DNA of 32,000 nt from an uncultured Clostridia bacterium (lineage in GTDB: Bacteria > Bacillota > Clostridia > TANB77 > RGIG9151), in NCBI GenBank assembly GCA_934500865.1, contig CAKSUD010000003.1:9817-41816 (forward strand), in the 5' to 3' direction. Within the stretch, counting starts at the first letter, position 1. Each line of letters starts with the position of its first letter. This document shows, in pieces, positions 4,528 through 30,308 of this stretch. Position numbers and translations under genes: made by a program. The notes beneath the pieces were generated by a model, which had not been told where the DNA came from, did not search any database, and was given only the letters and a program-made list of their open reading frames with translations.

Positions 4528-4540
4528 GAAGGAGAAAGAT

Positions 4541-5725: not shown

Positions 5726-5726
5726 A

Positions 5727-5755: not shown

Positions 5756-5760
5756 ATGTG

Positions 5761-6003: not shown

Positions 6004-6013
6004 AGTAAACCTC

Positions 6014-6187: not shown

Positions 6188-6235
6188 TATTATCACCTCT
6201 TGGGAATATTATTTCCAAAAAAACTAAATATATAC

Positions 6236-6268
6236 AAAAAGGAGCTATAAAAAATTTTATAGCTCCTT
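6236..6268 (-). terminator. Intrinsic terminator ending the GT2-mgtC-murA-MBL operon
   Basis: Perfect palindrome AAGGAGCTATAAAA/TTTTATAGCTCCTT (6239-6268). On the minus strand it is followed by a TTTTTG T-tract. Confidence 0.8.
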
Positions 6269-6272
6269 AAAA

Positions 6273-7028
6273 TTATGGTTTTGCAACTTCTATTGAAATT
6301 CCGGATAAATCTACGTTATTTGTCAGTAGTCTACTTCTGACTGTTTCTAACGCTAATTCCGGCAAGTTATTTTCTTCACTCAAATGTGCAAGAATAAATT
6401 TTTTTGTTCCTTTTTTTATCAAATACTCTACTGCTTCTGCGGATAAAGCATTTGATAAATGTCCGAAGGTACCTATTACTCTTTCTTTTAGAAAATAAGG
6501 ATAATTCCCGGAACGAAGCATTGCTACGTCGTGGTTTGCTTCAAGTAATATAGAGTCACTTGCTTCAAAGTTATATAAAAGTTCAGGGGTTAAATGTCCC
6601 ATATCAGTGGCAACAGTAACCTTATTCTTTCCACTAGTCATACTAAATCCGCATGGATCTATTGCATCGTGTGGAATGGAAAAAGGGTGAATACATATAT
6701 CGTCTATATTAAATGTTTCCCCGACAGTAAATTCATGTTTTAGGGCGTCTGGTATTTCTAATGAAACTAGAGTTCCCCATGTTTTTTCACTTGCAAATAC
6801 AGGAATGTTATATCTTTTTGAAAACACACGAATTCCTTTTATATGATCTGAATGCTCGTGTGTGATTAAAATAGCCTGAATTTCTTCAGGCTTTATATTA
6901 TTTTTTTCTAAATTTTCTACAAGTCGTTTTGAACTAACACCTATATCAACCAAAATTTTGGTTGTATCTGAAAATACATAAGTGCAATTCCCTTTACTGC
7001 TACTAAAAAGGGAGTGTATATCAAGCAT
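6273..7028 (-). CDS. MBL-fold metallo-hydrolase (YycJ/WalJ-like)
   Basis: 'ILITHEHSDHIKG' HxHxDH zinc motif, later His/Asp ligands ('HPFSIPHDA', 'AHLS'), 251 aa. It starts 2 nt after the murA stop. Confidence 0.8.
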   Translation of the reverse strand: MLDIHSLFSSSKGNCTYVFSDTTKILVDIGVSSKRLVENLEKNNIKPEEIQAILITHEHSDHIKGIRVFSKRYNIPVFASEKTWGTLVSLEIPDALKHEFTVGETFNIDDICIHPFSIPHDAIDPCGFSMTSGKNKVTVATDMGHLTPELLYNFEASDSILLEANHDVAMLRSGNYPYFLKERVIGTFGHLSNALSAEAVEYLIKKGTKKFILAHLSEENNLPELALETVRSRLLTNNVDLSGISIEVAKP

Positions 7029-7030
7029 AA

Positions 7031-8290
7031 TTAATCATCAACTCTTTCGATTTTGGCACCTAGTGCTTTAAATTTTTCTTCAATATTTTCGTAACCTCTA
7101 TCGATATATTCAATTTTAGAAATATCAGTAGTTCCTTTTGCAGCTAGTCCTGCGATGACCATGGCTGCTCCGGCTCTAAGGTCGGTACATTTTACAGGAG
7201 CACCATTTAAACTTTTAACCCCTTCTATAATGGCTGAACGACCTTCTGTTCTAATTGTAGCTCCGAATTTTCTTAGTTCGTCAACATATTGGAATCTGTT
7301 ATCCCAAATAGATTCTGTTAAAATGCTCATACCTTGTGCTATTGAAAGTAAAACTGCCATTTGAGGATGCATATCTGTTGGGAATCCAGGATAAGGCATC
7401 GTTTTTAAGTTAACATGCTTTGGTCTTTTATCACATTTAACATGAACTGCATCTCCTAATTCTTCTACGGTGATACCCATTTCCACAAGTTTTGCAGATA
7501 TAGAATCCAAGTGCTTTGGAATACAGTTTTTTATAGTAACATCTCCACCGGTAGCTGCCGCAGCAATCATAAATGTACCTGCTTCTATTTGGTCCGGTAT
7601 TATTGAGTATGTTGCATTACCAGGTAGGGAAGGCACACCTACAATTCTTATTGTGTCAGTACCTGCACCTTTAATATTAGCTCCCATAGTATTTAAAAAG
7701 TTAGCTAAATCAACTATATGTGGTTCTTTAGCAGCATTTTCAATGATAGTAGTACCTTCAGCCAATACTCCCGCTAAAATCATATTAATAGTAGCTCCAA
7801 CACTAACTATATCAAGATAAATAGATGTACCTACCAGTTTTTTAGCAGTCGCACGGATTATTCCTTGATTTGTGTTTATTTGAGCGCCTAGTGCTTCAAA
7901 CCCTTTTATATGTTGGTCGATTGGTCTTGCACCGAAGTTACATCCACCCGGAAGAGGAACTTCAGCTGACTTATATTTTCCAAGTAAGGCTCCGATTAGA
8001 TAATATGATGCACGCATTTTACTACAAAGGTCTAAGTCACATTTTGTTGAGGAAACCTTATTATTTTTTATTAAAATTTCTCCAGGATGCTCCTCAATAA
8101 CTGTCACACCAAGTTTCCTTAAAACATCGATATATTTTTTTACATCACTGATGTTAGGTAGGTTTTCAATTCTACACCATCCATCAACTAATAATGCTGC
8201 CGGAATAATGCAGATAGCAGCATTTTTTGCACCGCAAATAGTAACTTCTCCTTTAAGTGGTTTCCCACCAGAAATTCTTAGTTTTTCCAC
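7031..8290 (-). CDS. murA: UDP-N-acetylglucosamine 1-carboxyvinyltransferase MurA
   Basis: '[22 protein letters not shown]', active-site loop '[14 protein letters not shown]' with Cys, and '[12 protein letters not shown]'. The likely start is the GTG at 8290 (VEKLRISGG), 8 nt after GAGTGAGG. The track start at 8332 would overlap the upstream gene by 32 nt. Confidence 0.9.
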
Positions 8291-8300
8291 AGTATTAACC

Positions 8301-9020
8301 TCACTCTTCACTTTTAATAGATTCTTTTTCACTCATATTAACTGAAATAATATCAGGTAAAGTACAAATTTGACTAACTATTGCGGCAGTATTAGCTGCT
8401 GCGTTTACAGATATCTTAAATGATACAGAAGATATATTATCATCAATTGGTTTTAATGATATGTTGTTTATTTCAACAGAATTAGAAAAAAGTTTTTTCT
8501 CAATTTCTACTGCCACATCAGGATTACTTGTTGTAACAGAAAGTGAGAATTTTTTAGTTTCATAAGATTTTGTACCGTTTTTTACATATGATAATGCTAT
8601 AAAGATAGCTAATGTACAAACTGTTGCACCTAGATAAAAACCTACACCAGTAGCAAGTCCTATACAAGCAACTGCCCAAACACTGGCAGCAGTAGTTAAA
8701 CCTTTTACTGATGAACCGTTTCTAATAATAGTTCCGGCACCCAAAAAACCAATACCACTAATTACTTGAGCCCCAAGACGATTTATATCCATATTAGGAG
8801 AAAACTGATGATATTCACTATATGTGAATTCAGAAGTAAGCATAACCAAACATGCACCCACACAAACTAATATATGTGTCCTAAGCCCGGCAGGTCTATG
8901 AGCGTGTTCACGCTCCATTCCGATTAAAGCACCGAAACAAATCGCTAACAGGATTCTTAAAACCACCTGTGTTGTTTGAGAATTTAATATATCATATAGG
9001 AATAATGCAGCATCATTCAT
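8301..9020 (-). CDS. MgtC/SapB-family membrane protein with C-terminal ACT-like domain
   Basis: '[27 protein letters not shown]' and '[12 protein letters not shown]' are MgtC-family hallmarks. There are 4-5 TM segments followed by a soluble tail. Confidence 0.85.
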
Positions 9021-9030
9021 ATTTTATCTC

Positions 9031-10317
9031 CTAACTAGCAGAACTTTTTGCTTCTGCTTGTAGATTATTGGATATTTCATTCATATTTATTTTTCTTGTA
9101 TGTGCTGTATGGCTCCATTCCTTTTTATCTGAATGTAGCATACCTACTATTGTTATAGGAACCCAAGTTAAGTTATAAAATGGATAAACTAAATAAGCAA
9201 ATAATACTTTTAGATTAAATCTTCTCTCTGACATTATTATTAATGGACCATATAAGAATTGAGCTACCAAGAATACCATCCAAACATAATTAGGAATAAT
9301 GTAATTCATTTGGAATATTCCGCCTTGCGGGTAGAAGAATTGCATATAGGCAAGAATTGTTACTATGCCATAAACAATAATTCTAAGTGGTTGCAATAAA
9401 TAAGTAGCACAGTCAAACGCAACTAAGTTTTTTTCTTTAATTGCTTTATGCATAAGTTGGAAGAAAAATCTTCCTGTACAATCTGCATATCCTTGCATCC
9501 AACGAATTCTTTGATTCCAAGATTGTTTTAATGTAAGTGGTTTTTCGTCATATACAATGGCATCATGAGACCAGCCTACATAAATACCACGTAATGCAAG
9601 TTTCATAGTGAACTCTAAGTCTTCTGTAAGACAAGTTGCTCCCCAACCCATTTCACGAATAAGTTCAGAATCTACACAAAATCCTGTTCCACAAAGCCCA
9701 CAGGACATATGCAAATATGAACGTGGTAACTGATAAAGTCGGTTTGCTGTCCAGAAAGCAATTGAGTAAGATGCTGTTATCCAAGAGTCAAAAGGATTTT
9801 TGCTATCGATATATCCTTGAATAACTCTATATCCTTCGAGCATTCTTTTATTCATTTCCATAAGGAATCGTGGGTCTACCAAGTTGTCCGCATCAAATAC
9901 ACAAAAGGCATCATATTTCTTTTCCATCTTGAAGATTTTATCGAATGCCCATTCTAATGCGAAACCTTTACCTTTTTCAATTTTATTAAATCTTCTTAAA
10001 ACAATTGCGCCATGCTCTTGGGCAATGTCTGCTGTTTTATCGGTACAGTTATCTGCAACGACAAAGATATCATATAATTCATTTGGATATTTAATATTTT
10101 TTAAGCTGTCAACTAATTCACTAATAACAATTTCTTCATTGTGTGCAGCAACTACCATAGCAAATTTCTTAGTAGGCTTAAATGAAGAAGCAGGTTTTTC
10201 TTTACGCTTTATCCACCCCACAATAGAAATAGAGAAAAAGTATATAGCTAATATTAAAATTAAAAATTGAAGTAACATGCTTAAAAAATATAATAATCCT
10301 TCTTTAATAACTAACAT
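9031..10317 (-). CDS. Membrane-embedded processive family-2 glycosyltransferase (IcaA/PgaC/NodC-like synthase)
   Basis: The GT2 catalytic motifs occur in order: 'VVAAHNEE', 'VVADNCTD', 'FDADN', 'TEDLEF' and 'QRIRWMQG' (QxxRW). There is one N-terminal TM and about four C-terminal TMs. The start at ATG 10317 (MLVIKEG) lies downstream of the mapped promoter; the track start at 10416 lies upstream of that promoter. Confidence 0.8.
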   Translation of the reverse strand: MLVIKEGLLYFLSMLLQFLILILAIYFFSISIVGWIKRKEKPASSFKPTKKFAMVVAAHNEEIVISELVDSLKNIKYPNELYDIFVVADNCTDKTADIAQEHGAIVLRRFNKIEKGKGFALEWAFDKIFKMEKKYDAFCVFDADNLVDPRFLMEMNKRMLEGYRVIQGYIDSKNPFDSWITASYSIAFWTANRLYQLPRSYLHMSCGLCGTGFCVDSELIREMGWGATCLTEDLEFTMKLALRGIYVGWSHDAIVYDEKPLTLKQSWNQRIRWMQGYADCTGRFFFQLMHKAIKEKNLVAFDCATYLLQPLRIIVYGIVTILAYMQFFYPQGGIFQMNYIIPNYVWMVFLVAQFLYGPLIIMSERRFNLKVLFAYLVYPFYNLTWVPITIVGMLHSDKKEWSHTAHTRKINMNEISNNLQAEAKSSAS

Positions 10318-10353
10318 TAAAAAACATCCTTTCAAGAGAATTACCACCAAGCT

Positions 10354-10382
10354 ATAATAACTTTTTTTTGCCAAAATGTCAA
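10354..10382 (-). promoter_or_regulatory. sigmaA-type promoter of the GT2-mgtC-murA-MBL operon
   Basis: On the minus strand: TTGACA (10382-10377), 17 nt spacer, TATTAT (10359-10354). Confidence 0.65.
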
Positions 10383-10451
10383 TATAAACTACTAGAGCTA
10401 TATTCTCTTGTTGCAATGGTATTCAATATTGAAACGTACCCTTTTAAAATG

Positions 10452-10479
10452 TTGCAAAATTGCATAATTATGATAAAAT
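10452..10479 (+). promoter_or_regulatory. sigmaA-type promoter (extended -10) of the rimO operon
   Basis: TTGCAA (10452-10457), 16 nt spacer containing TG at 10471-10472, TAAAAT (10474-10479). It is divergent from the GT2 operon promoter. Confidence 0.6.
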
Positions 10480-10510
10480 ATAGAAGAAAAATTATTAAAG
10501 GGGAATAAAT

Positions 10511-11818
10511 ATGACAAAAATTGCTGTTGTTTCATTAGGATGTAATAAAAATTTGGTTGATTCCGAAATGATTTTGGGATTGCTTGTAAAGCGTGGATAT
10601 GAAATCGTTTCAGACGAGGCTTTAGCAGATATAATTATAATCAATACTTGCGCTTTTATTCACGATGCAAAACAGGAATCAATAGATAAAATTATAGAAA
10701 TTGGAAAACTAAAATCCGGAAATTGTAAAGGAATAATTGCTACCGGTTGTTTGGCTACAAGATATGAAAAAGAAATAAAGGAGTCTTTGCCGGAAGTCGA
10801 CTGCGTTGCAAAGATTAATGACTATGATGAAATAATAGATTTCATAGATAAAAAAATGAAAGATAGTGAAATAGATAAAAACATAAGAAGAATTAAATTT
10901 GGAGAAAGAATAAGATCTACAGCTCCATATTCTGCATATGTAAAAATTGCAGATGGATGTGATAATTGCTGTACATATTGTGTAATACCGTCTATAAGAG
11001 GGAAACATAAGAGCCGTAGTATTGAAGATATTGAAGAAGAAGTAAAAAGTCTAGTTAATGACGGTGTTACAGAGATAATTTTAACTGCTCAAGATACTAC
11101 TTATTATGGTATAGATAATTATGGAGAAAGAAAACTTGCAGAACTTATAGAAAAATTAGTAAAGATTGACGGTGTTCATTGGATTAGATTCCAATATTCT
11201 TATCCGGAAGGAATTACTGATGAATTATTAAAAGTAGTAAAGGAAAACGATAAGGTATGTAAATATTTTGATATACCGCTTCAACATTGTAACGATGAAA
11301 TGTTAAGACTAATGGGAAGAAAAACTACTAAGAAAGAAATAATGTCACTAATACAGAAAATAAGAAACGAAATACCGGAAGCTGTAATTAGGACATCATT
11401 AATTGTCGGATTTCCTACTGAAACAGAGGAACAATTTAATGAGTTAAATGAGTTCGTAAAAGAAGTAAAACTAGATAGATTAGGAGTTTTTACTTATTCG
11501 AAAGAAGAAGGAACACCGGCTGCTAAGTTAAAAGGACAAGTAGCTTCAAAAATAAAAAAGCAAAGACAAAGCATAATTATGGAAAATCAGCAAAAAATAT
11601 CTTTAGAAAAAAATAAAGAAAAAATAGGAAAAGAATTTGAAGTATTAGTAGAAGGAGCATTAGAGGACGGAACATTTTTCGGAAGAACATATCAAGATGC
11701 TCCGGAAGTTGATGGATTAGCTTTTATAGAATCGGAACGTGAATTGGTACTTGGAGAATATTATATGGTTAGAGTAATTGATGCAAAAGAGTATGATGTT
11801 GTATGTGAGCTAATTTAA
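10511..11818 (+). CDS. rimO: Ribosomal protein S12 methylthiotransferase RimO
   Basis: N-terminal UPF0004 cluster cysteines ('SLGCNKNLVDSE', 'NTCAFI', 'TGCL'), radical SAM 'CDNCCTYC', and a C-terminal TRAM domain. 435 aa. Confidence 0.85.
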   Translation: MTKIAVVSLGCNKNLVDSEMILGLLVKRGYEIVSDEALADIIIINTCAFIHDAKQESIDKIIEIGKLKSGNCKGIIATGCLATRYEKEIKESLPEVDCVAKINDYDEIIDFIDKKMKDSEIDKNIRRIKFGERIRSTAPYSAYVKIADGCDNCCTYCVIPSIRGKHKSRSIEDIEEEVKSLVNDGVTEIILTAQDTTYYGIDNYGERKLAELIEKLVKIDGVHWIRFQYSYPEGITDELLKVVKENDKVCKYFDIPLQHCNDEMLRLMGRKTTKKEIMSLIQKIRNEIPEAVIRTSLIVGFPTETEEQFNELNEFVKEVKLDRLGVFTYSKEEGTPAAKLKGQVASKIKKQRQSIIMENQQKISLEKNKEKIGKEFEVLVEGALEDGTFFGRTYQDAPEVDGLAFIESERELVLGEYYMVRVIDAKEYDVVCELI

Positions 11819-12602: not shown

Positions 12603-14153
12603 ATGATTATTGCAATAGGCTTTTTGTTATTGATGTTTTTTATAAATATAAATTTAACAATGCTTTATTATATTCATATGTACCAACTTAATTCTTATCA
12701 AGCGTTATCTCATATAAATTGGATTAAATCTAAATTTGTAAAAGACATAGTTTTTAGAAATTGTTGGTTGGTGATTCCTGTTGTAATAAGTTTTTCAGAC
12801 AATTTAGTTTTATTTGTAACAGGAACTATAATGAGTTATGTGTTAACGTTTACTGTAAATAGAAAGAAAGTGCAAAAAAAGCCGTTAGTTTATACCGGTA
12901 GAGCAACTAGATTAATAATAACATTGGGAATATTAAATTTAGTTGTATGTATTTTATCAATGAGATATTTAACTATATGGCAGACTTCAATTTTATTAGC
13001 TGCTTGGACGATATTACTGCCTGTTTTAGTTATGTTTGCCGGAATTATTAATTCTCCAATAGAGAAAAGTATTAATAATAAATTTATAAAAGAGGCAAAA
13101 AAAATAATTGATGATATGCCACAACTTACGGTTATAGGCATAACAGGTAGTTACGGTAAAACTAGTACAAAATATTTTTTGAATAAAATCTTGTCTGTAA
13201 AATATAATGTTTTGATGACACCGGGAAATTATAATACAACATTAGGTGTTGTAAGAACTATTAGAGAAAAATTAAATGCGACACATCAGATTTTTTTATG
13301 TGAAATGGGAGCAAGACATGTAAATGATATAAAAGAAATTTGTGATTTGGTGAAGCCTAAATACGGTATAATTTCTTCAATAGGTCCTCAACATCTAGAA
13401 ACTTTTTTCACAATAGATAATGTTATAAAAACAAAATTCGAGTTGGCAGATGCAATTCCAAGTGATGGTGCAATATTTTTAAACTATAATAACGAATATA
13501 TTAAGAATCATAAAACCGATAAAAATACTGTGACATATGGCTTTAACAACGAAGAATATGCAGCTTATGATATAAAAGTTAATTCAAAAGGAAGCAGTTT
13601 TACAGTTAAGTCTAAGACAGGAGAGGTAGAGACTTTTAAAACAAAACTTATCGGTAGACACAATGTTGAAAATATTTTAGGTGCAATCGCAGTTGGAAAT
13701 AAATTGGGAATTTCTTTGAGTGATATGGTTTATGCGGTAAAAACATTAGAAGCAGTACCTCATAGATTGGAGTTAGTGAAAGGAAATAATGCCACATTAA
13801 TAGATGATGCATATAATTCAAATCCTGTTGGTGCAAAGGCTGCACTAGATACATTAAACTGTTTTGAAGGTATAAAGATTTTAATAACTCCCGGAATGAT
13901 AGAATTAGGAGATAAGCAGTTTGAATGTAATAAAGAATTTGGTAAGCAAGCAACAGCAGTTTGCGACTATATAGTTTTAGTTGGTAAAGAGCAAGCCAAA
14001 CCTTTAATGGAAGGTATAGAGGAAACTAAGTTTGATATGAGTAAGTTATTTGTTGCCGACAATTTTAACGAGGGAATAAAGTGGATTTCTGAGTTAAAGT
14101 GTGATAAAGAAAAGTTTGTATTAATAGAAAATGACTTGCCGGATAATTATTAA
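12603..14153 (+). CDS. murF: MurF-like UDP-MurNAc-tripeptide--D-alanyl-D-alanine ligase with an N-terminal polytopic membrane domain
   Basis: Residues from about 175 to the end align by eye with MurF: 'GITGSYGKTSTK', 'GNYNTTLGV', 'EMGARHVNDI', 'GPQHLETF', 'GRHNVENILGA', 'PHRLE', 'DDAYNSNP', 'GMIELG'. The first 150-160 aa are four or five hydrophobic helices instead of the soluble MurF domain 1. Confidence 0.75.
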   Translation: MIIAIGFLLLMFFININLTMLYYIHMYQLNSYQALSHINWIKSKFVKDIVFRNCWLVIPVVISFSDNLVLFVTGTIMSYVLTFTVNRKKVQKKPLVYTGRATRLIITLGILNLVVCILSMRYLTIWQTSILLAAWTILLPVLVMFAGIINSPIEKSINNKFIKEAKKIIDDMPQLTVIGITGSYGKTSTKYFLNKILSVKYNVLMTPGNYNTTLGVVRTIREKLNATHQIFLCEMGARHVNDIKEICDLVKPKYGIISSIGPQHLETFFTIDNVIKTKFELADAIPSDGAIFLNYNNEYIKNHKTDKNTVTYGFNNEEYAAYDIKVNSKGSSFTVKSKTGEVETFKTKLIGRHNVENILGAIAVGNKLGISLSDMVYAVKTLEAVPHRLELVKGNNATLIDDAYNSNPVGAKAALDTLNCFEGIKILITPGMIELGDKQFECNKEFGKQATAVCDYIVLVGKEQAKPLMEGIEETKFDMSKLFVADNFNEGIKWISELKCDKEKFVLIENDLPDNY

Positions 14154-17254: not shown

Positions 17255-20200
17255 ATGAAAAATAATAAAGATAAATCGATACTTAAAATGAATAAGGACT
17301 TTTTTGCTATTTATTCTATTTATAGAAGGTTAAATGATACAAAAAATTCTAAAACCCAATTAGTACCTGCAAGTGAGTGGCTTTTGGATAATTTCTATAT
17401 AATTGAAGAACATGCAAAGCAAATAAAAAGGGATTTTAATAAGAAAATATATAGGGATTTGCCTATTGTAAGTTCCGGATATACAAGAGTTTTTACGATT
17501 GCAAGAGAAATTGTAGAAAAAAATGATGGAAAAATTGATGAGAATATTATAGAAAACTTTATAAAAAAGTATGAGGAAGTTACACCATTATATATGCGTG
17601 AAATATGGAATTTAGGTGTAACATTAAGAATATCCCTTATAGAAAAAATAAGAAAAATAAGCGAAGAAATAGTAAGAACGTATAGTAAATGGGAACAAGC
17701 AGAAAAGTGGTTAGAAGATTATAACGAAAATTCAGAATTAAGGTTACCGGGTGTTGACGATAATTATTCTTTTTATGAGCATCTTGCTTTTAAACTAAGG
17801 AGAATGGGGAAAGACGGAATCATAGTTCTAAACCGTATTGATAATTACATAGAGAAATACGGTACAAGTATTGAAGCTATTTCGAGGAAAGAGCATAGCA
17901 TTCAAGCTGAAATGAAAATTTCTATAGGAAACTCTATTCAAAGTTTAAAATATATTTCTAATATTAATTGGAATGAGCTTTTTAATAAAATAAGTGAAAT
18001 TGAAAACATTTTTAATACAGAAAAATCAGGTATTTATCCTAAAATGGATTTAGAGAGTAAAAATGCATACAGGAGCAAGGTAGAAAAAATCGCAAAAACC
18101 TTTGAGATTTCTGAATTGCATGTAGCTAAAAAATGTGTGGCATGTGCAGATGAAAATTATGATGATGAAAAAGCCGGACACGTCGGATATTATCTATTAG
18201 ATGAAGGTAAGGAGGTCCTAATAGATAATTTAGATGTGAAAGTTCCATTTTTATATAAACTAAAAAACTTTTTTGTGAAAAATCCATTCCCTATCTATTT
18301 AACAACAATGATTTTATTTGCACTTATTTCTACTGTATTATTGTATTTACTTTTTTATTTTACGACAGGGATTACAAGACTTTCTTATATCGGATTAGTA
18401 TTTGGATTTATTATTGCGTTTGATGGAGGAGTATGTTTTGCGAATTACCTATTTAGTAGAATGTTTAAGCCTAGAGTGATACCACGACTAGATTATATGG
18501 AAGGTATTCCTGAGAATTCGGCTACTATGGTTATTGTTCCTACATTACTATCAAGTAAAAAAAGAGTAAGTGATATGCTAAGTAATTTAGAAAAATATTT
18601 TGTAGCAGTATCGTCTGAAAATGTGTTTTTTACATTGGTAGGGGATGCAAAAGAGAGTGAAACAGAAGATATAGAAGAGGATGAAGAAATTGTAAAAAAA
18701 GGGATAAGTACCGTAAATAGGTTAAATGAAAAGTATGGTGCTAAAAAGTTCTTTTTTGTATATAGAAAAAGATTTTTTAATGCGTCAGAAGAAAAATGGC
18801 TTGGATGGGAAAGAAAACGTGGAGCAATACTAAAATTTAATGAATTTTTGATTGACGGCAAAAAAGAAGATTATAGATGTGTTTCGGATGGTTTTAATAC
18901 TTTGCCGAAAATAAAATATGTATTAACAGTTGATGCAGATACAATAATTCCTATAAATGAAGCCAGAAAGTTAATTGGAGCGATTTCACATCCTGTAAAT
19001 AAACCTGTATTAAATGAGGAAGAAACTGCTGTTGTTTCGGGGTACGGACTAATTCAACCACATATAGGAATAGATGTGGTAAGTGCAAACCAGAGTAAAT
19101 TCTCACAGGTATTTGCCGGAACCGGAGGAATAGACCCATATGTTTGTGCATCATCAGATATTTATCAAGATTTATTTGGGGAAGCAATCTTTACAGGAAA
19201 AGGAATTTATGATTTGGAAGTATTTCAAAAGGTTTTAAAGGATACTTTACCGGATAATGCTATTTTAAGCCATGATTTACTTGAAGGATCATATCTTAGA
19301 GCGGGGCTGGCAACAGATATTGAACTAATAGATGGTTATCCTTCTAGATATAATGCTTATGCAATGCGTGCACATAGATGGATAAGAGGCGATTGGCAGA
19401 TACTTTCTTGGATGTTTGGAAAGGTAAAAAATAGAGCGAATGAAACTATAAAAAATCCAATAAATAAAATATCAAAGTGGAAAATATTCGATAACCTAAG
19501 AAGAAGTTTAACAGCACCGTTTATGATGCTACTGATATTTTTGGCATTTTGGATATTGCCCGGAAATCCATTAATATGGACTGCTTTTGCAGTAATACTC
19601 GGAATAAGGGGAAACAAAAAACAATTTTTATATCAGTTTTTATTTCTTCCGTTCCAAGCTTGGCTTATGTTTAGTGCAATATGTATAACGCTATATAGAA
19701 TGGTTTTTATAAAGAAAAACTTATTAGAATGGGTTACAGCAGCAGATATGGAAACTAAGTTAAAAAATACTTTAGGTAGTTTTTATTTTCTTATGAAATC
19801 TAACTTAGTTCAAGGACTTGCAATTTTTTTACTTGCGTATTTCGTAAAGGGAGACAGAGTATCGATAATTACAGGGTTATTCTTATTTGCAGTTTGGACA
19901 ATTTCACCGATAATTGCATTTTATATAAGTAAACCACGTCATAATAAAAATGAAAATTTAAGTGATGATGAAAAGGAAGAACTAAAAATATTTGCAAAGA
20001 ATACTTGGAGCTATTTTGAAACATTAATGAACGCTGAAAATAATTTCCTTCCACCTGACAATTTTCAAGAAGATCCACCAAATGGGGTAGCATATAGAAC
20101 ATCTCCTACAAATATTGGATTGGGGATGCTTGCAATTTTGTCAGCTTACGATTTAGGATTTATAGATAAAAATGAGTTGATAGATAGGTTTGAAAAAATA

Positions 20201-22225
20201 TTAAATACAATTGAAAAGCTGGAGAAATGGAATGGGCATTTGCTTAATTGGTATAATACTAAAACGCTAAAGCCTTTATTTCCAAGGTATATTTCTACTG
20301 TAGATAATGGAAACTTTTTAGCTTATGCTATTACAGCTAGAGAAGGAATTAAGGAAATACTATGTGACGAGGATGAGAAAAAGAAGGAGTTTGTAGAAAA
20401 ACTTGAGCAAATAATTAAAGAAATGGATTTCTCAATTTTATATGATAAAAAGAAAAATGTATTTTCTATCGGGTATAACCTAGAAGAAGGAAGGCTTACA
20501 AATTCATATTATGATTTACTGGCTTCAGAGGCAAGGCAGACAAGTTTTTTAGCTGTTGCTCGTCATGAAGCGCCGGTAAAACATTGGTTTTCTTTAGGTA
20601 GAAGTTTAACGAAGTTAAACGGGCATAAAGGGCTGGTATCTTGGACAGGTACGATGTTTGAATATTTAATGCCACTTTTAGTTATGAAAAATTATTACAA
20701 AACTTTACTTGATGAAACGTATGATTTTGTAATAGAAAGCCAAATGATATATGCAAAAAAGAAAAATGTCGTATGGGGAATTTCCGAATCAGCATTTTAT
20801 AACTTTGATATTAATTTGAATTATCAATATAAAGCGTTAGGCGTTCCTTGGTTAGGCTTAAAAAGAGGACTTATAGATGATACTGTTATCTCACCTTATT
20901 CTACTATGCTAGCACTTATGGTAAAGCCGAAAGAGGCATATAAAAATTTAGGGGTAATGTTGGATTTTAATATGTTTGGAAAGTTTGGCTTTTATGAAGC
21001 AATTGATTTTACTCCTGGAAGGCTTAAATTTATAACAGGTGATAAGAATTATGCACAAATAAAAAGTTATATGGCACATCATCAAGGAATGAGCTTGGTT
21101 GCAATTAATAACGTAATAAATAATTTTGTTATGCAAGAAAGATTCCATAGAGATGTTTATGTAGAGTCAGCAGAGGTACTTCTGCAAGAAAAAGTTCCCG
21201 GAGATATAATTTATACTAAGGATAGTAAGGAAAAGGTTGTACCACCAAAGCAAGTTGTTTATGAGAGTATTGATACCGATCGTGAAATAGAGATAAAAGA
21301 AAATATAAGACCTGAATTTAATGTGCTTACGAATGGAAGTTATTCGGTAAGAATAAATGATAGAGGTATAGGAGTTTCCCAACTTAGCAATGTATCAATT
21401 TCAAGATATAGAAGTGATTATTTAAACGAAATATATGGGCAGGTATTTTATATAAGATGCATTAATACAGGTGAAATATGGTCACCAACATATCTCCCGT
21501 ATTTTAAGAAACCGGATAAATATATGACAGTTTTTTCAGGAGATAAAACTAAGTTTATTCGTAGAGATGGAAATATAGAAACTAATTATGAAGTGGTAGT
21601 AGCGACTGAGGATAACCTAGATATAAGGCGTATTTCAATAGTAAACCATAATGATATGGCACTAGACTTTGAAGTTACAGGATTACTTGAAATTGTTAAT
21701 GGAGACCAAAACGCAGATATTGCACACAGAGCTTTTTATGGACTATTTGTTACTACTGAACAAGAAAACGAAGTATTACTTGCAACTCGTAAACCTAGAA
21801 ATAGCAACGAAGAAAATTTTGTGGTATTTCAAACGTCTTTTGTGAATGGAGACAGTGTTGGAGATTTTCAGTTTGAAACAGACAGAATGAAGTTCTTAGG
21901 CAGAGGAAGAAGCAATAAAAACCCAAGTGCAATATTGGAAGGAAAACCTTTACTAGGAAGTGTAGGCGGAGTTTTAGACCCAATATTTGCACAAAGAAGA
22001 ATTATACGAGTAAAACCAAATGAAACAGCAAGTGTAAACTTTATTACCGGTATACAGCCGGAACGGGAAAAAGCACTGGAAACAGGTACTCGGTATAGAA
22101 AAGATGAAATGATTTCAAGAGTGTTTAGATTAGCGTATGCTAGAAATCAAGTTGAATTATCATACCTTAATGTTACTTCTGATGAAGTGAAATTTTTTGA
22201 CGATATGATAAAATATTTAGTTTAA
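17255..22225 (+). CDS. Cyclic beta-1,2-glucan synthase (Cgs/NdvB/ChvB-like), N-terminal 1656 aa: GT84 glycosyltransferase, TM segments, (alpha/alpha)6 cyclization domain and the first GH94-type beta-sandwich
   Basis: N-terminal 'SEWLLDNFYIIEEH'. GT84 motifs 'TMVIVPTLL', 'LTVDADT', 'LSHDLLEG' and 'HRWIRGDWQ'. Several TM clusters. Glucoamylase-like middle domain motifs 'YRTSPTNIGLG', 'NGHLLNWYNT', 'STVDNGNF', 'YDLLASEARQ', 'WTGTMFEYLMP', 'WGISESA', 'GFYEAIDF' and 'AHHQGMS'. Confidence 0.85.
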   Translation: MKNNKDKSILKMNKDFFAIYSIYRRLNDTKNSKTQLVPASEWLLDNFYIIEEHAKQIKRDFNKKIYRDLPIVSSGYTRVFTIAREIVEKNDGKIDENIIENFIKKYEEVTPLYMREIWNLGVTLRISLIEKIRKISEEIVRTYSKWEQAEKWLEDYNENSELRLPGVDDNYSFYEHLAFKLRRMGKDGIIVLNRIDNYIEKYGTSIEAISRKEHSIQAEMKISIGNSIQSLKYISNINWNELFNKISEIENIFNTEKSGIYPKMDLESKNAYRSKVEKIAKTFEISELHVAKKCVACADENYDDEKAGHVGYYLLDEGKEVLIDNLDVKVPFLYKLKNFFVKNPFPIYLTTMILFALISTVLLYLLFYFTTGITRLSYIGLVFGFIIAFDGGVCFANYLFSRMFKPRVIPRLDYMEGIPENSATMVIVPTLLSSKKRVSDMLSNLEKYFVAVSSENVFFTLVGDAKESETEDIEEDEEIVKKGISTVNRLNEKYGAKKFFFVYRKRFFNASEEKWLGWERKRGAILKFNEFLIDGKKEDYRCVSDGFNTLPKIKYVLTVDADTIIPINEARKLIGAISHPVNKPVLNEEETAVVSGYGLIQPHIGIDVVSANQSKFSQVFAGTGGIDPYVCASSDIYQDLFGEAIFTGKGIYDLEVFQKVLKDTLPDNAILSHDLLEGSYLRAGLATDIELIDGYPSRYNAYAMRAHRWIRGDWQILSWMFGKVKNRANETIKNPINKISKWKIFDNLRRSLTAPFMMLLIFLAFWILPGNPLIWTAFAVILGIRGNKKQFLYQFLFLPFQAWLMFSAICITLYRMVFIKKNLLEWVTAADMETKLKNTLGSFYFLMKSNLVQGLAIFLLAYFVKGDRVSIITGLFLFAVWTISPIIAFYISKPRHNKNENLSDDEKEELKIFAKNTWSYFETLMNAENNFLPPDNFQEDPPNGVAYRTSPTNIGLGMLAILSAYDLGFIDKNELIDRFEKILNTIEKLEKWNGHLLNWYNTKTLKPLFPRYISTVDNGNFLAYAITAREGIKEILCDEDEKKKEFVEKLEQIIKEMDFSILYDKKKNVFSIGYNLEEGRLTNSYYDLLASEARQTSFLAVARHEAPVKHWFSLGRSLTKLNGHKGLVSWTGTMFEYLMPLLVMKNYYKTLLDETYDFVIESQMIYAKKKNVVWGISESAFYNFDINLNYQYKALGVPWLGLKRGLIDDTVISPYSTMLALMVKPKEAYKNLGVMLDFNMFGKFGFYEAIDFTPGRLKFITGDKNYAQIKSYMAHHQGMSLVAINNVINNFVMQERFHRDVYVESAEVLLQEKVPGDIIYTKDSKEKVVPPKQVVYESIDTDREIEIKENIRPEFNVLTNGSYSVRINDRGIGVSQLSNVSISRYRSDYLNEIYGQVFYIRCINTGEIWSPTYLPYFKKPDKYMTVFSGDKTKFIRRDGNIETNYEVVVATEDNLDIRRISIVNHNDMALDFEVTGLLEIVNGDQNADIAHRAFYGLFVTTEQENEVLLATRKPRNSNEENFVVFQTSFVNGDSVGDFQFETDRMKFLGRGRSNKNPSAILEGKPLLGSVGGVLDPIFAQRRIIRVKPNETASVNFITGIQPEREKALETGTRYRKDEMISRVFRLAYARNQVELSYLNVTSDEVKFFDDMIKYLV

Positions 22226-22241
22226 TTATGGAGGAGAAAAT

Positions 22242-24956
22242 ATGAAAAATACTAAGGGTATCCTCTGGAGTCATGGAATTTCAGGTGATTTACCGATTGT
22301 GCTTATTGTTATAAAAAAATACGAAGACTTAGATGTTATTTACGATATGATAAAAGCACACGAGTATTGGAGAACAAAGGGGATTTTTGTTGACCTTGTT
22401 ATTTTAAGTTACGAGGAAATTAGTTATAATCATCCTTTGTGGAACAGCATATTTGAAATTGTGTCCGGCAGCCATTTAGGTAACTTACAAAATGTGTCCG
22501 GTGGAGTTTTTATGTTACGAGGAGAAATTTTAGATAAACAAGATATAGAAGAACTTATCAGTATTGCTAATATTGTGTCAGAAGATGGTGGAGTTAGGTT
22601 ACCTGAAGATGTAAAAGCAGAAGAACCATATAATGATAGTTTGTTAAGAACTGGCGGAAAAAGTATAGATAAAAGAAAACTTGAGTTTTTTAATGGAATT
22701 GGTGGCTTTGATGAAAAGGCAATGGAATATGTTATATATCCCACAAAAAATGAATACACTCCCCTTCCTTGGAGCAATGTAATGTGTAATAAGGATTTTG
22801 GCTGTATAATGACAGAAGCGGGTGGCGGATATACATGGGCATTTAACAGTAGAGAATATAGGCTTACTCCTTGGAGTAATGATGCAGTTAGTGACTTACA
22901 AGGAGAATATGTATATCTTGAGGATTTAGACAGTAAAGAACGCTTTGGGGCCTATTTACTTCCTTACGAAACTAATGGAGGATATGAAGTGTCTTTTGGG
23001 CTTGGATACTGTAAATATCTATCTATAATATCCGATTTATTAATTGAGCTTACTGTTTTTGTGCCAAGAAAAGAGCTTGTAAAAATTTCTATGATAAAGA
23101 TTAGAAATCTAAGTGGCAGAAAAAGAAAGTTAAGTTTAAGGTATTATATTAATCCGGTACTTGCATTTAGTAATAATTTTAGAGAAAAAAATATAAAGAC
23201 GACAGTTGATAATGATAAAATAATTTTTGAAAATAAATACGAAAGAGAATTTTTTTATAGTAAGGTTTATTTAACAACGGGCAAAGGAAGCAATTTTTAT
23301 AAGAAAAATATTGGGGTAGAATCGTATATTAATGTTGAAATAAATGATAATGATGAACTAAATAAAGTGTTCCTTTTGGGGGCTTGTGAAAATGAAGTGA
23401 TTGCAGATAAATTTTTAGAATGGGAGAAAGCAAGTACTGAATTAGATGAAGTAAAAAAGTTTTATAAAAAAGATGTACAAAAAATAAAAGTTAACACTCC
23501 GGACAAAGCTACTAATTTATTATTAAATGGTTTTTTACTATATCAGGCACTTGTTTGCAGAATTTTTGGTAAGAGTTCATTTTATCAGTCTGGAGGAGCT
23601 ACCGGATTTAGAGACCAACTTCAAGATGTTATGCCGTTTTCGTTTATTATGCCGGAGCTTACTCGTGAGCAAATTTTATACCACGCCAGACATCAGTTTG
23701 ATGAGGGAGACGTCTTGCATTGGTGGCACAAAGAAGCTCAAAAGGGAACACGAACGAGATTTTCGGACGATTTGCTATGGTTAGTTTATGTAACTAATTA
23801 TTATATAAAAGTAACTAATGATAAAAGTATTTTAGATGAACAGGTTTCGTTTGTAGAGGGGGTAGAGCTTGAGGATTATGAGGATGAAAAATATATTGAA
23901 TTTGAATATTCTCAAAATAGCGCCTCTTTATTTGCACATTGTATTTTTTCAATTGAACATGCATTAAAATTTGGAGAACATGGACTTATATTAATGGGAT
24001 CAGGTGACTGGAACGACGGAATGAATGAGGTCGGAAATAAAGGAAAAGGTGAGAGTGTATGGCTTTCGTGGTTTTTATATAAAATACTTGTTGATTTTTC
24101 TCCCATTTGTACAGAACAAGGTAGGGCTGATTTAGCGGAAAAATATAATGAAATTGCGATAAAGTTAAAAGAACAGATCAATACTAAAGCATGGGATGGA
24201 GAATGGTATAAAAGAGCATATTTTGATGATGGAACTCCTCTTGGTTCGATAGAAAATGATGAGTGTAAAATAGATTCTATTTCACAGTCTTGGAGTGTTA
24301 TTTCCGGTGCAGGAGATGAAAATAAAAAAGAGAAGGCTATGAATTCACTGGATAATTATTTAATAGATAAAGAAAATGGAATTATAAAATTACTCACTCC
24401 TCCATTTTCAGAAGGCGAATTAAAGCCAGGATATATAAAGAGCTATTTAGAGGGAATTCGTGAAAATGGTGGTCAATATACTCATGCAGCTATTTGGGCA
24501 GGAATTGCTTATGCAATAATGAAAAAGGGAGATAAAGCATTTTCTATATTTGAAATGTTAAATCCTATTAATCATAGTAGAACAGACAGTGAAATGAAAA
24601 AATATAAGCTAGAGCCGTATGTTATTTCAGCTGACATATATACTAACCCGCTTCATATAGGGCGGGGGGGTTGGAGTTGGTATACTGGTGCAGCATCTTG
24701 GATGTATAGGTTTGGAATTGAATATATATTAGGAATAAAATTTAGAGGAAAAACGGTTATTATTGAGCCGTGTACAAGCTCTGATTGGAATGAATATACT
24801 TTGGAGTATAAAATTAAGGATACAACATACAACATTAATGTTAAGCTTAACTCCGGCAAAGAAAATAAGATTGTTATTGACAATGTGTTAGAAGAGGGAA
24901 ATAGCTTTACTATAAGTGAAGACGGAAAGTTTCATTTTATAGAGGTATATTGCTAA
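22242..24956 (+). CDS. GH94 beta-1,2-glucooligosaccharide phosphorylase-like module of the cyclic glucan synthase, encoded as a separate 904-aa ORF
   Basis: 'LWSHGISGDLPIV', 'PLPWSNVM..GGGYTWAFNSREYRLTPWSND', and catalytic (alpha/alpha)6 motifs 'GFRDQLQD', 'GSGDWNDGMN', 'RENGGQYTHAAIW' and 'GRGGWSWYTGAASW'. The ATG is 6 nt after GGAGGAG. It is in a different frame from the upstream ORF. Confidence 0.85.
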   Translation: MKNTKGILWSHGISGDLPIVLIVIKKYEDLDVIYDMIKAHEYWRTKGIFVDLVILSYEEISYNHPLWNSIFEIVSGSHLGNLQNVSGGVFMLRGEILDKQDIEELISIANIVSEDGGVRLPEDVKAEEPYNDSLLRTGGKSIDKRKLEFFNGIGGFDEKAMEYVIYPTKNEYTPLPWSNVMCNKDFGCIMTEAGGGYTWAFNSREYRLTPWSNDAVSDLQGEYVYLEDLDSKERFGAYLLPYETNGGYEVSFGLGYCKYLSIISDLLIELTVFVPRKELVKISMIKIRNLSGRKRKLSLRYYINPVLAFSNNFREKNIKTTVDNDKIIFENKYEREFFYSKVYLTTGKGSNFYKKNIGVESYINVEINDNDELNKVFLLGACENEVIADKFLEWEKASTELDEVKKFYKKDVQKIKVNTPDKATNLLLNGFLLYQALVCRIFGKSSFYQSGGATGFRDQLQDVMPFSFIMPELTREQILYHARHQFDEGDVLHWWHKEAQKGTRTRFSDDLLWLVYVTNYYIKVTNDKSILDEQVSFVEGVELEDYEDEKYIEFEYSQNSASLFAHCIFSIEHALKFGEHGLILMGSGDWNDGMNEVGNKGKGESVWLSWFLYKILVDFSPICTEQGRADLAEKYNEIAIKLKEQINTKAWDGEWYKRAYFDDGTPLGSIENDECKIDSISQSWSVISGAGDENKKEKAMNSLDNYLIDKENGIIKLLTPPFSEGELKPGYIKSYLEGIRENGGQYTHAAIWAGIAYAIMKKGDKAFSIFEMLNPINHSRTDSEMKKYKLEPYVISADIYTNPLHIGRGGWSWYTGAASWMYRFGIEYILGIKFRGKTVIIEPCTSSDWNEYTLEYKIKDTTYNINVKLNSGKENKIVIDNVLEEGNSFTISEDGKFHFIEVYC

Positions 24957-25009
24957 ATTATTTACAAAATTATCAAAATGATGTAGTATATACTTGGGAG
25001 TTGGTTAAT

Positions 25010-25432
25010 TTGGATAGAATTTTAGGCATTGACCACGGAGACAGCAGAACAGGTCTTGCTGTAAGTGATTTAATGGGGTGGACTGCCCAAGGAATTGAAA
25101 CGGTACATCATAAGGGGAATATAAAAATTCTTTTAAATAGAATTAAAGAGATTATTGCTGAATATAATGTTAATAAAATTGTTATAGGGTATCCTAGAAA
25201 TTTAAATGGTAGTATTGGTCCAAGGGCTGAAAAAACTGAAGAATTTATTAAAATTTTAATAGACAAGTTCGGTTTGGATGTGATAAAATGGGATGAATGG
25301 TTAAGTACGGTTTCTGCTCATCGAGATATGATTGATATGAATATAAAAGGCAGAAAAAAGAAAGATATTGTGGATACAATAGCGGCCGTTCATATTTTAC
25401 AGAATTATTTGGATTCAATTTCAAATAAATAA
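25010..25432 (+). CDS. ruvX: Holliday junction resolvase-like nuclease RuvX (YqgF)
   Basis: 'ILGIDHGDSRTGLAVSD', 'VIGYPRNLNGSIGPRAE' and 'DEWLSTVSA'. The likely TTG start at 25010 is 9 nt after GGGAG and gives the typical length of about 140 aa. The track start (TTG 24950) overlaps the preceding gene. Confidence 0.85.
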   Translation: MDRILGIDHGDSRTGLAVSDLMGWTAQGIETVHHKGNIKILLNRIKEIIAEYNVNKIVIGYPRNLNGSIGPRAEKTEEFIKILIDKFGLDVIKWDEWLSTVSAHRDMIDMNIKGRKKKDIVDTIAAVHILQNYLDSISNK

Positions 25433-26748: not shown

Positions 26749-26824
26749 ACCCATTGACTGGAAGAAAAAGCCGAGTTATTATATAAGTGTCAAAACACAA
26801 GACTGTTGTGAAGGAGTGAGTGAT

Positions 26825-27442
26825 ATGTTAGAAGAACTCGGTGAAAAAATTGGAAATGCAGTTGAGAATAATCTTGATGATATAACGCCTACTCAAAAAG
26901 AGATTATTCAATATACAGTAGTACAAGTTTTTGGAGAACTCATAAAAATGGCAATAATGTTTGCTATTGTATGGCCGTTTGGAGTAGCACATTTATTATT
27001 AATAGCGATTTTTTCCATGGCGATATATAGAGTCCCATCAGGCGGGGTACATTCTAAAAGCCATATCGCTTGCTTTGTCACAAGTATGATTTTATTTATG
27101 GGAAATGTTTTAATTTCATCATTAGTAAAAGGACCACATTTAGATATTATATATATATTAATTTTTTTGATAAATATTCCTATTATTCATTATTTTGCTC
27201 CGGCAGATACAGAAATGAAACCGGTAGTAAGCAAGAAACAAAGGTTACTACTGAAAATTATTTCTTATATATGTATGACTGGTACGATATTAATCGGAAG
27301 ATTTGCTATTAATGATATAGTTATAAGAAATATATTTATATTCGGAACATTAATTCAAAGTATAACAATGTTACCATTTATATATAAAATTCTGGGAACA
27401 AGATACGGGTACAGAGACGGGATAGTAGTTCCACAAATTTAG
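26825..27442 (+). CDS. agrB: AgrB-family accessory gene regulator B (AgrD-processing membrane cysteine endopeptidase)
   Basis: Polytopic membrane protein. 'YRVPSGGVHSKSHIACFVTS' carries the His and Cys spaced 7 residues apart, as in the AgrB catalytic pair. The ATG at 26825 is 8 nt after AAGGAG; the track start (GTG 26816) lies in the SD. Confidence 0.85.
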   Translation: MLEELGEKIGNAVENNLDDITPTQKEIIQYTVVQVFGELIKMAIMFAIVWPFGVAHLLLIAIFSMAIYRVPSGGVHSKSHIACFVTSMILFMGNVLISSLVKGPHLDIIYILIFLINIPIIHYFAPADTEMKPVVSKKQRLLLKIISYICMTGTILIGRFAINDIVIRNIFIFGTLIQSITMLPFIYKILGTRYGYRDGIVVPQI

Positions 27443-28973: not shown

Positions 28974-30308
28974 ATGGACTATTATATTTTAACACCAATT
29001 TCATTTTTATTGAGAATTTTGGAGGCATTTTCTCAATTTAGCTTAGTTTTAGTTATTTTAGACAAAAACATTTTTAATAAGAAACATCTTTTTGGAGCAA
29101 TATTGTTTTCGGTAATTTTTGAATTAGGAAAGTCGATTTGCCCACAATATTTATCTGGATTTTTAGCCATTATATTAGGTGTTCCTTTTATATCTATATA
29201 TTTTAAAGAAAAAGTATGGAAAGTTGGGATATCTTATATAATTACCGGAATAGGTGTGGCATTTTTAGATTTTATAGTTTTACTATGTTTATCATTGATA
29301 TTTCACATTCAAAAGTTTGATGATATTGCAAATATGCCATTGTTATATAACTTAGGCTGTTTAATAATTTCCATGTCTTTATTAGGAATAAGTTATGTGA
29401 TTTATTTAGTAAAGAGAAAGCGTAATATAAAACTTGAAGCTTTACCTAAGGCTACAACAGGATTGATTAATGCAATTGCAACATTTTTATTGTTAGTACC
29501 GAACCTAGTTATGCTTTTATATTATCATGATGATAAAAATATACCACTTATAATTATAATCATAAATATTCTTGCAATTATAGCAATGTTCTTTGTAAGT
29601 ACATATAACACTAAGAAAGGCTTTGAATTAGTAACTGCTGAGCAAGAATTAGTAACTCAAAAGACGTATAATAAAACTCTACAAAATCTTGTAGATGGAC
29701 TACGTACGTTTAAACATGATTATAACAATACACTTCAAACGATGTATGGTTATATACAACTAAATAATATGACTGCACTACGAGAATTTTTTGAACAAAT
29801 ATTGGATGAGTCAAGAGCCATAACGGCATTAGATAAATTAAATCCTGATCTTTTTAAAAATCCAAGTTTGTTTGGATTAATTACTGCGAAATATGAATAT
29901 GCAAGACAAAATAATGTTAATATAAACTTTGAAATGTATGGAAAACTTGAAAATGCTAATATGCAAATATATGATTTGACAAGAACTCTTGGAATATTTT
30001 TAGATAATGCAATTGAGGCATCTGCCGGAAGCGATAAGAAAAAGGTTAACTTTATGGTATGTGAAAGAAGAGGGAAAGTAGTTATCGAAATTACTAATTC
30101 ATATTCAGAAACAGGGTTAACGATAGAAAATATAAATGATAAGGGTATGTCTTCAAAAGGAGAAAATAGAGGATTAGGTTTATATAAAGTTAAGGAAATA
30201 TTAAAGAAGTACTCTAATGTTAAGCATGAAACAACAGCGTCAAAAGGTATGTTTATGCAAAGACTTACCATAAGTAAAATAAAAGAAAATTCAAAACAAA
30301 AATGTTAG
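28974..30308 (+). CDS. AgrC-like (HPK10 family) membrane sensor histidine kinase
   Basis: About six N-terminal TM helices. H-box 'FKHDYNNTLQTMYGY', N-box 'IFLDNAIEAS', G-box 'NRGLGLYKV'. The ATG is 6 nt after GGAGGG. Confidence 0.8.
   Translation: MDYYILTPISFLLRILEAFSQFSLVLVILDKNIFNKKHLFGAILFSVIFELGKSICPQYLSGFLAIILGVPFISIYFKEKVWKVGISYIITGIGVAFLDFIVLLCLSLIFHIQKFDDIANMPLLYNLGCLIISMSLLGISYVIYLVKRKRNIKLEALPKATTGLINAIATFLLLVPNLVMLLYYHDDKNIPLIIIIINILAIIAMFFVSTYNTKKGFELVTAEQELVTQKTYNKTLQNLVDGLRTFKHDYNNTLQTMYGYIQLNNMTALREFFEQILDESRAITALDKLNPDLFKNPSLFGLITAKYEYARQNNVNINFEMYGKLENANMQIYDLTRTLGIFLDNAIEASAGSDKKKVNFMVCERRGKVVIEITNSYSETGLTIENINDKGMSSKGENRGLGLYKVKEILKKYSNVKHETTASKGMFMQRLTISKIKENSKQKC

Follow-up and report, generated by a model that had tools for sequence, protein, structure and literature searches.

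A two-gene form of a cyclic β-1,2-glucan synthase-type enzyme in uncultured Clostridia

The window analyzed here, a DNA stretch of 32,000 nucleotides from an uncultured Clostridia bacterium (GenBank assembly GCA_934500865.1, contig CAKSUD010000003.1, positions 9,817 to 41,816 of the forward strand), carries two adjacent open reading frames, ORF1 and ORF2, that together resemble a cyclic β-1,2-glucan synthase (Cgs). We designate them cgs part A and cgs part B. Public records call these genes "hypothetical protein" or "DUF3131 domain-containing protein". The locus has the following layout.

17255–22225, forward strand: cgs part A (ORF1), 1656 aa, predicted to be membrane-anchored, with the N-terminal domain, GT84, transmembrane (TM) helices, GH189-type cyclase (CY), and GP1
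22223–22225, forward strand: stop codon TAA of ORF1, following K-Y/F-L-V/I at an alignment position shared by 8 of 8 lineages
22226–22241, forward strand: intergenic spacer of 16 nt with the Shine-Dalgarno (SD) sequence GGAGGAG at 22230–22236
22242–24956, forward strand: cgs part B (ORF2), 904 aa, predicted to be soluble, with RFL, the GP2 supersandwich, the GH94 catalytic barrel, and a C-terminal domain

ORF1 ends with ...FFDDMIKYLV followed by TAA. ORF2 begins with MKNTKGILWSHGISGDLPIV and is read in the +1 frame relative to ORF1. Upstream, the frame of ORF2 is limited by a TAG at 22218–22220 and is open from 22221 (F-N-Y-G-G-E-N-M). No alternative ATG, GTG, or TTG is present in this open stretch, so the start of ORF2 is unambiguous. 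The SD sequence begins 4 nt past the stop of ORF1, and 5 nt separate it from the ATG of ORF2. Every sequence statement made in an earlier note on this DNA (the stop, the start, the +1 frame open back to 22221, and the SD) was confirmed. The note had also pointed out that a single-nucleotide change would fuse the two frames, which is geometrically correct within 22221–22225 and would give a protein of 2560 aa. Its remark that no long homopolymer lies at the junction holds as well, the sole nearby one being T6 at 22193–22198, outside the 5-nt fusing window. No terminator-like site was found between ORF1 and ORF2 on the forward strand, and no significant RNA structure was detected in the spacer (fold z-score −0.05). 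Together with the short spacer and the position of the SD sequence, this makes co-transcription and translational coupling of the two genes likely. The hit of a promoter scan at 22187–22214 was discounted as evidence for an internal promoter, since the scan found sigma-70-like sites to be rarer in the native sequence (35) than in shuffled sequence (mean 45).

The junction was compared between the window and the DNA of seven relatives with the split, whose assemblies are independent of one another (ENA, NCBI, JGI, and Logan). Identities of ORF2 to that of the window were 97, 91, 84, 67, 64, 60, and 53% in L091, L088, L089, L005, L090, L003, and L001, respectively. The ORF1 homolog was located directly upstream of the ORF2 homolog in all seven relatives, and the surrounding genes differed among the loci. 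In eight of eight lineages ORF1 had the C-terminus ...K(Y/F)L(V/I) at an identical position of the alignment, with TAA, TAG, or TGA as the stop codon. Starting with the window and then in the order given above, the spacers were 16, 16, 16, 17, 10, 13, 122, and 144 nt long, and the relative frames were +1, +1, +1, +2, +1, +1, +2, and 0. ORF2 started with ATG, GTG, or TTG, each having its own purine-rich SD-like stretch upstream. L001 is the in-frame case; its spacer contained four more stops in the frame of ORF1 beyond ORF1's own. The two long spacers (L003, 7879–8000, 122 nt; L001, 7857–8000, 144 nt) formed stable hairpins (z −3.2 and −3.5 compared to shuffles). No T-run followed these spacer hairpins, which could be processing, stability, or attenuation elements setting the ratio of A to B. 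An alignment of the junction, which the earlier note had proposed as a check, thus found the split, the SD, and the start kept in 8 of 8 lineages. The recurrence of the break in seven further lineages is far beyond chance, and the varied spacers, frames, and stops, with the additional in-frame stops in a spacer, form a pattern that neither an error of one base nor a recent frameshift can yield.

Protein database searches gave a consistent size distribution. With ORF2 as the query, 41 clusters of 885–936 aa were retrieved at identities from 100 down to 53%, and longer proteins appeared only below 53%. With ORF1, 18 clusters of 1652–1687 aa were retrieved at identities from 97 down to 59%; the next matches were a fused pair of 2676 and 2679 aa at 55–56% identity (P0140/P0141), followed by about 100 fused proteins, mostly of 2650–2890 aa. 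Among the matches listed in a scan of genome contigs with the split-clade ORF2 alignment, all had at most 45% identity, nearly all were fused, and none belonged to the split clade. A scan of metagenome contigs with ORF2 yielded relatives of at most 51% identity (full-length ones of at most 45%) and no member of the split clade. The split relatives were labeled in their sources as "Clostridia bacterium" or "Clostridiales bacterium". Sporulation genes (SASP, SpoIIID, DpaA, BofA, and Coat_F) were found near the split loci, which fits a spore-forming lineage of Clostridia as the host.

Both genes are under strong purifying selection. The dN/dS values (Nei-Gojobori) for the window and L091, the 97% relative, were 0.06 for ORF1 and 0.10 for ORF2; for the window and L088, the 91% relative, the value was 0.04 for both genes. 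Between the deeper split subclades synonymous sites were saturated, which indicates that the split clade is old. In neighbor-joining trees of the ORF2- and ORF1-equivalent regions, with 45 fused proteins for comparison, the split genes formed a single clade (bootstraps 50/50 and 30/30 for the ORF2 region and 30/30 for the ORF1 region). Its sister was the fused pair P0140/P0141, with equal bootstrap support in both regions.

The fused homologs also reveal what was lost at the break. Between the two break points, a linker of 11–16 residues was present in 97 of the 97 fused homologs (P0140–P0240) in which both flanks could be placed. It usually has the form (Y/F)xSPxRRKYxxxI, is 11 residues long (FNKPIKKHQLA) in P0140/P0141, and is missing from the split clade. 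The N-terminus of ORF2, MKNTKG, is homologous to KNTKGQ located just after the linker of fused proteins, whereas the peptide FNYGGEN that would arise from the hypothetical 1-nt repair bears no resemblance to the linker. With the linker lost and a stop, a spacer, and a start gained, one old fission of a fused ancestor is the simplest history. In this monophyletic group of uncultured Clostridia, the two-gene arrangement is old, conserved, and maintained by selection.

The domains and active sites of the two proteins were located by Pfam searches and by alignment to the A. tumefaciens enzyme (AtCgs).

18644–19378, forward strand: GT84 active-site and primer residues D464, D560 (VDADT), Y629 (primer tyrosine, GIDPYV), D674 (SHDLLEG), and R708 (HRW)
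20528–20788, forward strand: catalytic glutamates E1092 and E1178 of the GH189 cyclase, aligned to E1300 and E1386 of AtCgs
21311–22051, forward strand: GP1, the first GH94 supersandwich, ORF1 residues 1353–1599 (Pfam PF06165, E 1e-59)
22260–22571, forward strand: RFL subdomain, ORF2 residues ~7–110, a predicted β-α-β-α-β-α unit (AlphaFold2 model and alignment to the AtCgs RFL)
22572–22679, forward strand: variable linker between RFL and GP2, of low confidence, ORF2 residues ~111–146, the site at which a second class of split genes breaks
22761–23279, forward strand: GP2, the second GH94 supersandwich, ORF2 residues 174–346 (Pfam PF06165, E 2e-43)
23463–24734, forward strand: GH94 catalytic (α/α)6 domain, ORF2 residues 408–831 (Pfam PF17167, E 8e-120)

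In phmmer searches against A. tumefaciens Cgs (cryo-EM structure 8rf9), ORF1 matched with E 1e-300 and ORF2 with E 7e-192. Residues D464, D560, D674, and R708 of ORF1 align to D527, D624, D739, and R773 of the AtCgs GT84, and Y629 aligns to Y694, the autoglycosylated primer tyrosine of AtCgs in the IF1-homology loop. These AtCgs positions (D527, D624, Y694, D739, and R773) are the named GT84 and primer residues (PMC10901819), those of GT84 comprising the UDP-binding aspartates, the catalytic base, and the RW motif. The catalytic glutamates of the cyclase are E1300/E1386 in AtCgs (PMC11842490) and E1356/E1442 in TiCGS. A glucoamylase-like/DUF3131 region was found by Pfam at residues 914–1298 of ORF1, ahead of GP1, and ORF1 matched the TiCGS-Cy structure 8wy1 with E 4e-100 over a region covering E1092 and E1178. 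The catalytic Asp of GH94 is D592 of ORF2 (24015–24017) in the motif GDWNDGMN; it aligns to D2528 of AtCgs and is invariant among 16 split-clade proteins. By these alignments, all checked catalytic residues are intact in both halves. A simple hydropathy scan, which is not a topology prediction, revealed hydrophobic TM-like segments of ORF1 at residues 349–396, 752–813, and 871–889, positioned as the TM regions of AtCgs, and none in ORF2. In Cgs, about six TM helices on the flanks of the GT domain provide the membrane anchor. The scan suggests that part A works in the membrane and that part B is soluble.

The position of the break was determined relative to AtCgs, in which the GP region starts at residue 1536 and RFL (1847–2012) is inserted between GP1 and GP2 (Sedzicki et al., PMC10901819). 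Residues 1053–1655 of ORF1 align to chain index 1242–1843 of 8rf9, residues 7–314 of ORF2 to index 1866–2193, and residues 366–872 of ORF2 to 2279–2789. Since the aspartate of GDWND at index 2509 is D2528 of PMC10901819, native numbering is obtained by adding 19 to the chain index. The end of ORF1 thus corresponds approximately to native residue 1862 of AtCgs, and residue 7 of ORF2, the first conserved one, to native residue 1885. The alignment places the natural cut at the edge between GP1 and RFL, on the N-terminal border of RFL. The AlphaFold2 model of ORF2 was moderate (mean pLDDT 70, alignment of 16 sequences) and was used solely for secondary structure and domain limits. It predicted strands at residues 19–24, 51–56, and 89–92, helices at 27–45, 65–75, and 99–110, and a disordered stretch at 110–138 (pLDDT about 31) followed by the GH94 body. 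The top Foldseek match of the model was 8rf0_A (TM-score 0.71).

A second class of two-gene Cgs was found in three contigs.

L006, 2651–9004 and 9001–11421: genes for 2117 and 806 aa
L092, 5001–11390 and 11369–13762: genes for 2129 and 797 aa
L093, 1–2199 and 2177–4714: partial gene and gene for 845 aa

Here the break lies after RFL, in the variable linker corresponding to residues 113–146 of ORF2, and the gene ends overlap by 4–23 nt. The three are 52–72% identical to each other. In the neighbor-joining tree their GH94 parts cluster with P0082, P0116, and P0092, apart from the clade of the window, and the second clade appears to be independent of, not nested in, the first. As it is cut on the other side of RFL, both linkers flanking RFL seem to tolerate a chain break.

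Two further broken loci were examined and set aside. L014 (44% identity), from a low-coverage metagenome-assembled genome, has a break at the same junction (7138–7170) and was considered as a deeper lineage sharing the split; its ORF2 frame lacks a start codon, and a second break lies at 3654–3679, so it probably represents an error or a pseudogene. In L007 (P0092), a long-read contig whose GH94 part falls in the second (type II) split clade, the region 2965–11340 is shattered into many small ORFs, and this contig was rejected as evidence on the organization. Both are examples of error or decay in the Cgs family.

As a whole, the data are best explained, with high probability in our opinion, by an ancient fission that produced a two-subunit Cgs reassembling non-covalently. 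A single gene fission in a spore-forming lineage of uncultured Clostridia would have exchanged the GP1/RFL linker for a stop, a short spacer with an SD sequence, and a newly acquired start. Part A would be the membrane-embedded machine of synthesis and cyclization, combining the N-terminal domain, GT84 with the primer tyrosine, the TM helices, the GH189 cyclase, and GP1; part B would be soluble and supply RFL, GP2, and the GH94 phosphorylase. In the lineage of the window the pair would be co-transcribed and probably translationally coupled. Part B would dock non-covalently on GP1 and the N-terminal domain of part A, and the docking would rebuild the rigid GP "glucan-binding landscape", positioning the growing chain for phosphorolytic length trimming and cyclization. 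From the sequences we infer the physical assembly of the parts, their translational coupling, and cyclic β-1,2-glucan as the product. A genuine two-subunit enzyme with its own SD and ATG was one of the three readings offered in the earlier note, and on genomic and evolutionary grounds it stands. The note had placed the break ahead of the GH94 module, and this part has to be amended: the GP1 supersandwich remains on ORF1, so the GP region itself is cut, and the separate piece consists of RFL, GP2, and GP3.

The argument for binding comes partly from A. tumefaciens. Function is lost in the truncation Cgs1-1846, which is nearly an "ORF1-only" enzyme, whereas the GH94 mutation D2528A has little effect and leaves the enzyme close to wild type; the authors concluded that the C-terminal half of AtCgs is a scaffold (PMC10901819). 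If the missing piece is needed as a scaffold, part B would have to bind part A. The persistence of the pair across differing neighborhoods, with RFL on part B and GP1 on part A, likewise suggests binding. Several points weigh against the two-subunit enzyme. With gaps of 122 and 144 nt and stable hairpins, two lineages (L003 and L001) show that tight coupling is no general rule. The truncation result was obtained with the fused enzyme of Agrobacterium, a distant relative, and may not apply here. The trees are distance-based neighbor-joining trees only, and no gene for a cyclic-glucan exporter (ChvA/NdvA-type ABC) adjoins the cgs pair.

Another possibility, which we regard as rather unlikely, is that the fission made the RFL-GH94 piece a subunit that can dissociate and is dosed separately. 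Whether part A cyclizes its glucan, and at which length, would then be tuned by the amount of this subunit or by its binding, and the unbound protein could act as a cytosolic β-1,2-oligoglucan phosphorylase. If so, the two fissions flanking RFL and the structured spacers would reflect selection for adjustable stoichiometry and not neutral fission.

The main rival explanation is that the two parts have become functionally uncoupled: part B would be a free cytosolic SOGP-like phosphorylase and part A a lone synthase/cyclase whose product size is set otherwise, with no stable complex between them. The GH94 activity is dispensable for the synthesis of cyclic glucan in Agrobacterium (D2528A, PMC10901819), the TiCGS cyclase domain forms cyclic glucans when isolated (PMC10834661), and stand-alone SOGP enzymes do exist (5h3z was among the matches). 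The long structured spacers of two lineages could also permit unequal expression. This explanation has to contend with the adjacency of the genes at every locus examined despite differing surroundings, and with the retention on part B of RFL, which in AtCgs contacts the N-terminal domain, forms part of the glucan-binding surface, and guides the chain (PMC10901819). GP1, which is one rigid body with GP2/GP3 when fused, stays on part A under selection, and Cgs1-1846 is inactive. We consider uncoupling unlikely.

The remaining explanations carry hardly any weight. A sequencing or assembly indel, the first reading of the earlier note, would mean that the locus is really one 2560-aa ORF with a 1-nt error near 22221–22225. 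A one-base change within the 5-nt window would indeed join the frames, and error-type breaks do occur in the family (L014 and L007), but an identical break in assemblies from four sources, at up to 47% protein divergence (97–53% identity of ORF2), with differing spacers, stops, and frames including the in-frame L001, no homopolymer at the site, and a repaired FNYGGEN unlike the ancestral linker, makes such an error extremely improbable. Scarcely more than a nominal chance is left for the note's other reading, a very recent inactivating frameshift after which ORF2 is no longer expressed. A break in an enzyme that is normally one chain usually points to a pseudogene, and Agrobacterium Cgs truncated to 1-1846 does not function; however, ORF2 remains intact (899–936 aa) down to 53% identity at a dN/dS of 0.04–0.10 with its catalytic Asp invariant, an SD and a start codon are kept in every lineage of an old split clade, the break is shared by the seven further lineages, and neither scattered stops in the ORF2 of relatives nor an ORF2 dN/dS near 1 was seen. 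The production of a single polypeptide by programmed recoding (+1 frameshift or readthrough) or protein trans-splicing has a negligible probability. In the window, a one-codon overlap of the ORF2 frame with the ORF1 stop (GTT TAA T) bears a superficial resemblance to a +1 site, but the relatives would require shifts of +1, +2, or 0 over 10–144 nt with multiple stops, which excludes a conserved slippery site. The SD follows the stop, whereas that of prfB precedes it, and both proteins are flush with the fused homologs, leaving no room for split-intein halves.

The genes around the cgs pair offer several side observations. A RuvX-like ORF (24950–25432) begins with a TTG at 24950, seven bases ahead of the ORF2 stop (24954–24956), and the pair seems to run into a string of housekeeping genes (RuvX and DUF1292, with SASP and IreB in relatives). 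Farther downstream, an AgrB homolog (26816–27442) and a SpoOB-type/GHKL histidine kinase (28974–30308) are syntenic with 12775–13579 and 15100–16434 of L091, and a 42-aa ORF follows the AgrB homolog in relatives. Taken together, these genes resemble a peptide quorum-sensing locus of the agr type. A 460-aa family-2 glycosyltransferase (PF13641/PF13632) is encoded on the reverse strand at 9031–10416, some 7 kb upstream of the pair. The searches also returned many proteins of 1300–1570 aa on long contigs that combine PF10091 (glucoamylase-like/CY), PF06165, and PF17167, among them P0050 (343-kb contig), P0108 (660-kb contig), L030, L060, and L068. They appear to consist of the cyclase and GH94 without the GT84/TM part and may be degradative enzymes or one more architecture within the Cgs family.

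Descriptions of Cgs present it as a "self-contained assembly line" on one chain of about 2800 residues. Its size and flexibility hamper its expression and study, and it is recognized by the formation of cyclic β-1,2-glucan with a degree of polymerization of ~17–25 from UDP-glucose. The enzyme of A. tumefaciens has the same order of domains as the pair of the window (N-terminal domain, GT84, six-TM region, CY, GP1, RFL, GP2, and GP3), and ORF1 and ORF2 align to it end to end. It differs in being one chain of ~2830 aa, whereas the window encodes proteins of 1656 and 904 aa, broken between GP1 and RFL with the loss of ~13 linker residues. In addition, the host of the window is a Gram-positive anaerobe without an adjacent ChvA/NdvA-type exporter gene, unlike the A. 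tumefaciens system. The closest characterized relatives are the fused enzymes of Clostridia and Thermoanaerobacter (TiCGS, the founding member of GH189, PDB 8WY1; P0150 and P0153), with 41–46% identity over ORF1; these are single chains of 2800–2890 aa with the (Y/F)xSPxRRKY linker. The uncharacterized metagenomic proteins P0140 and P0141 (2676 and 2679 aa), which form the sister group and have 55–56% identity to ORF1, are nevertheless single ORFs with a linker.

The GP region of Cgs has been likened to LpSOGP (PMC10901819), and ORF2 and SOGP have the GH94 fold and the type of substrate in common. SOGP works as an independent enzyme, unlinked to a synthase, with its own GP1-like supersandwich at the N-terminus, a catalytic domain, and no RFL. 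ORF2 does not fit this definition: it lacks GP1, contains the Cgs-specific RFL, and always lies beside part A. It matched SOGP 5h3z only weakly (E 5e-6, compared to 7e-192 for Cgs). The second split class shares with the window the two-gene organization, Clostridia-like metagenomic contigs, and a GH94 core on a separate gene; it differs in the break after RFL (2117–2129 + 797–845 aa) and the overlapping gene ends, whereas the window has the break at the GP1/RFL edge and a spacer.

No description of a two-gene Cgs was found in the PMC and bioRxiv literature, including the 2024 structure paper, the GH189 paper, a 2025 review, and a 2025–26 preprint on related synthases, a search that left most subscription journals uncovered. 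In automatic annotation, pairs of this kind may be taken for frameshifted genes. A natural, selected two-piece Cgs would mean that a cut between GP1 and RFL and, judging from the second clade, likewise one between RFL and GP2 leaves the enzyme functional. Split Cgs would be a ready-made system for testing the role of the C-terminal scaffold, with part A expressible with or without the soluble part B. Cgs-type genes now extend to gut and rumen-type uncultured Clostridia. The pair of the window carries the GT84 residues, the primer Tyr, the GH189 glutamates, GP1-RFL-GP2-GP3 with its Asp, and the predicted TM anchoring, and it is divided over two polypeptides instead of one. By every sequence feature tested except the single polypeptide, it would therefore be assigned to Cgs, as a variant organization of the family.

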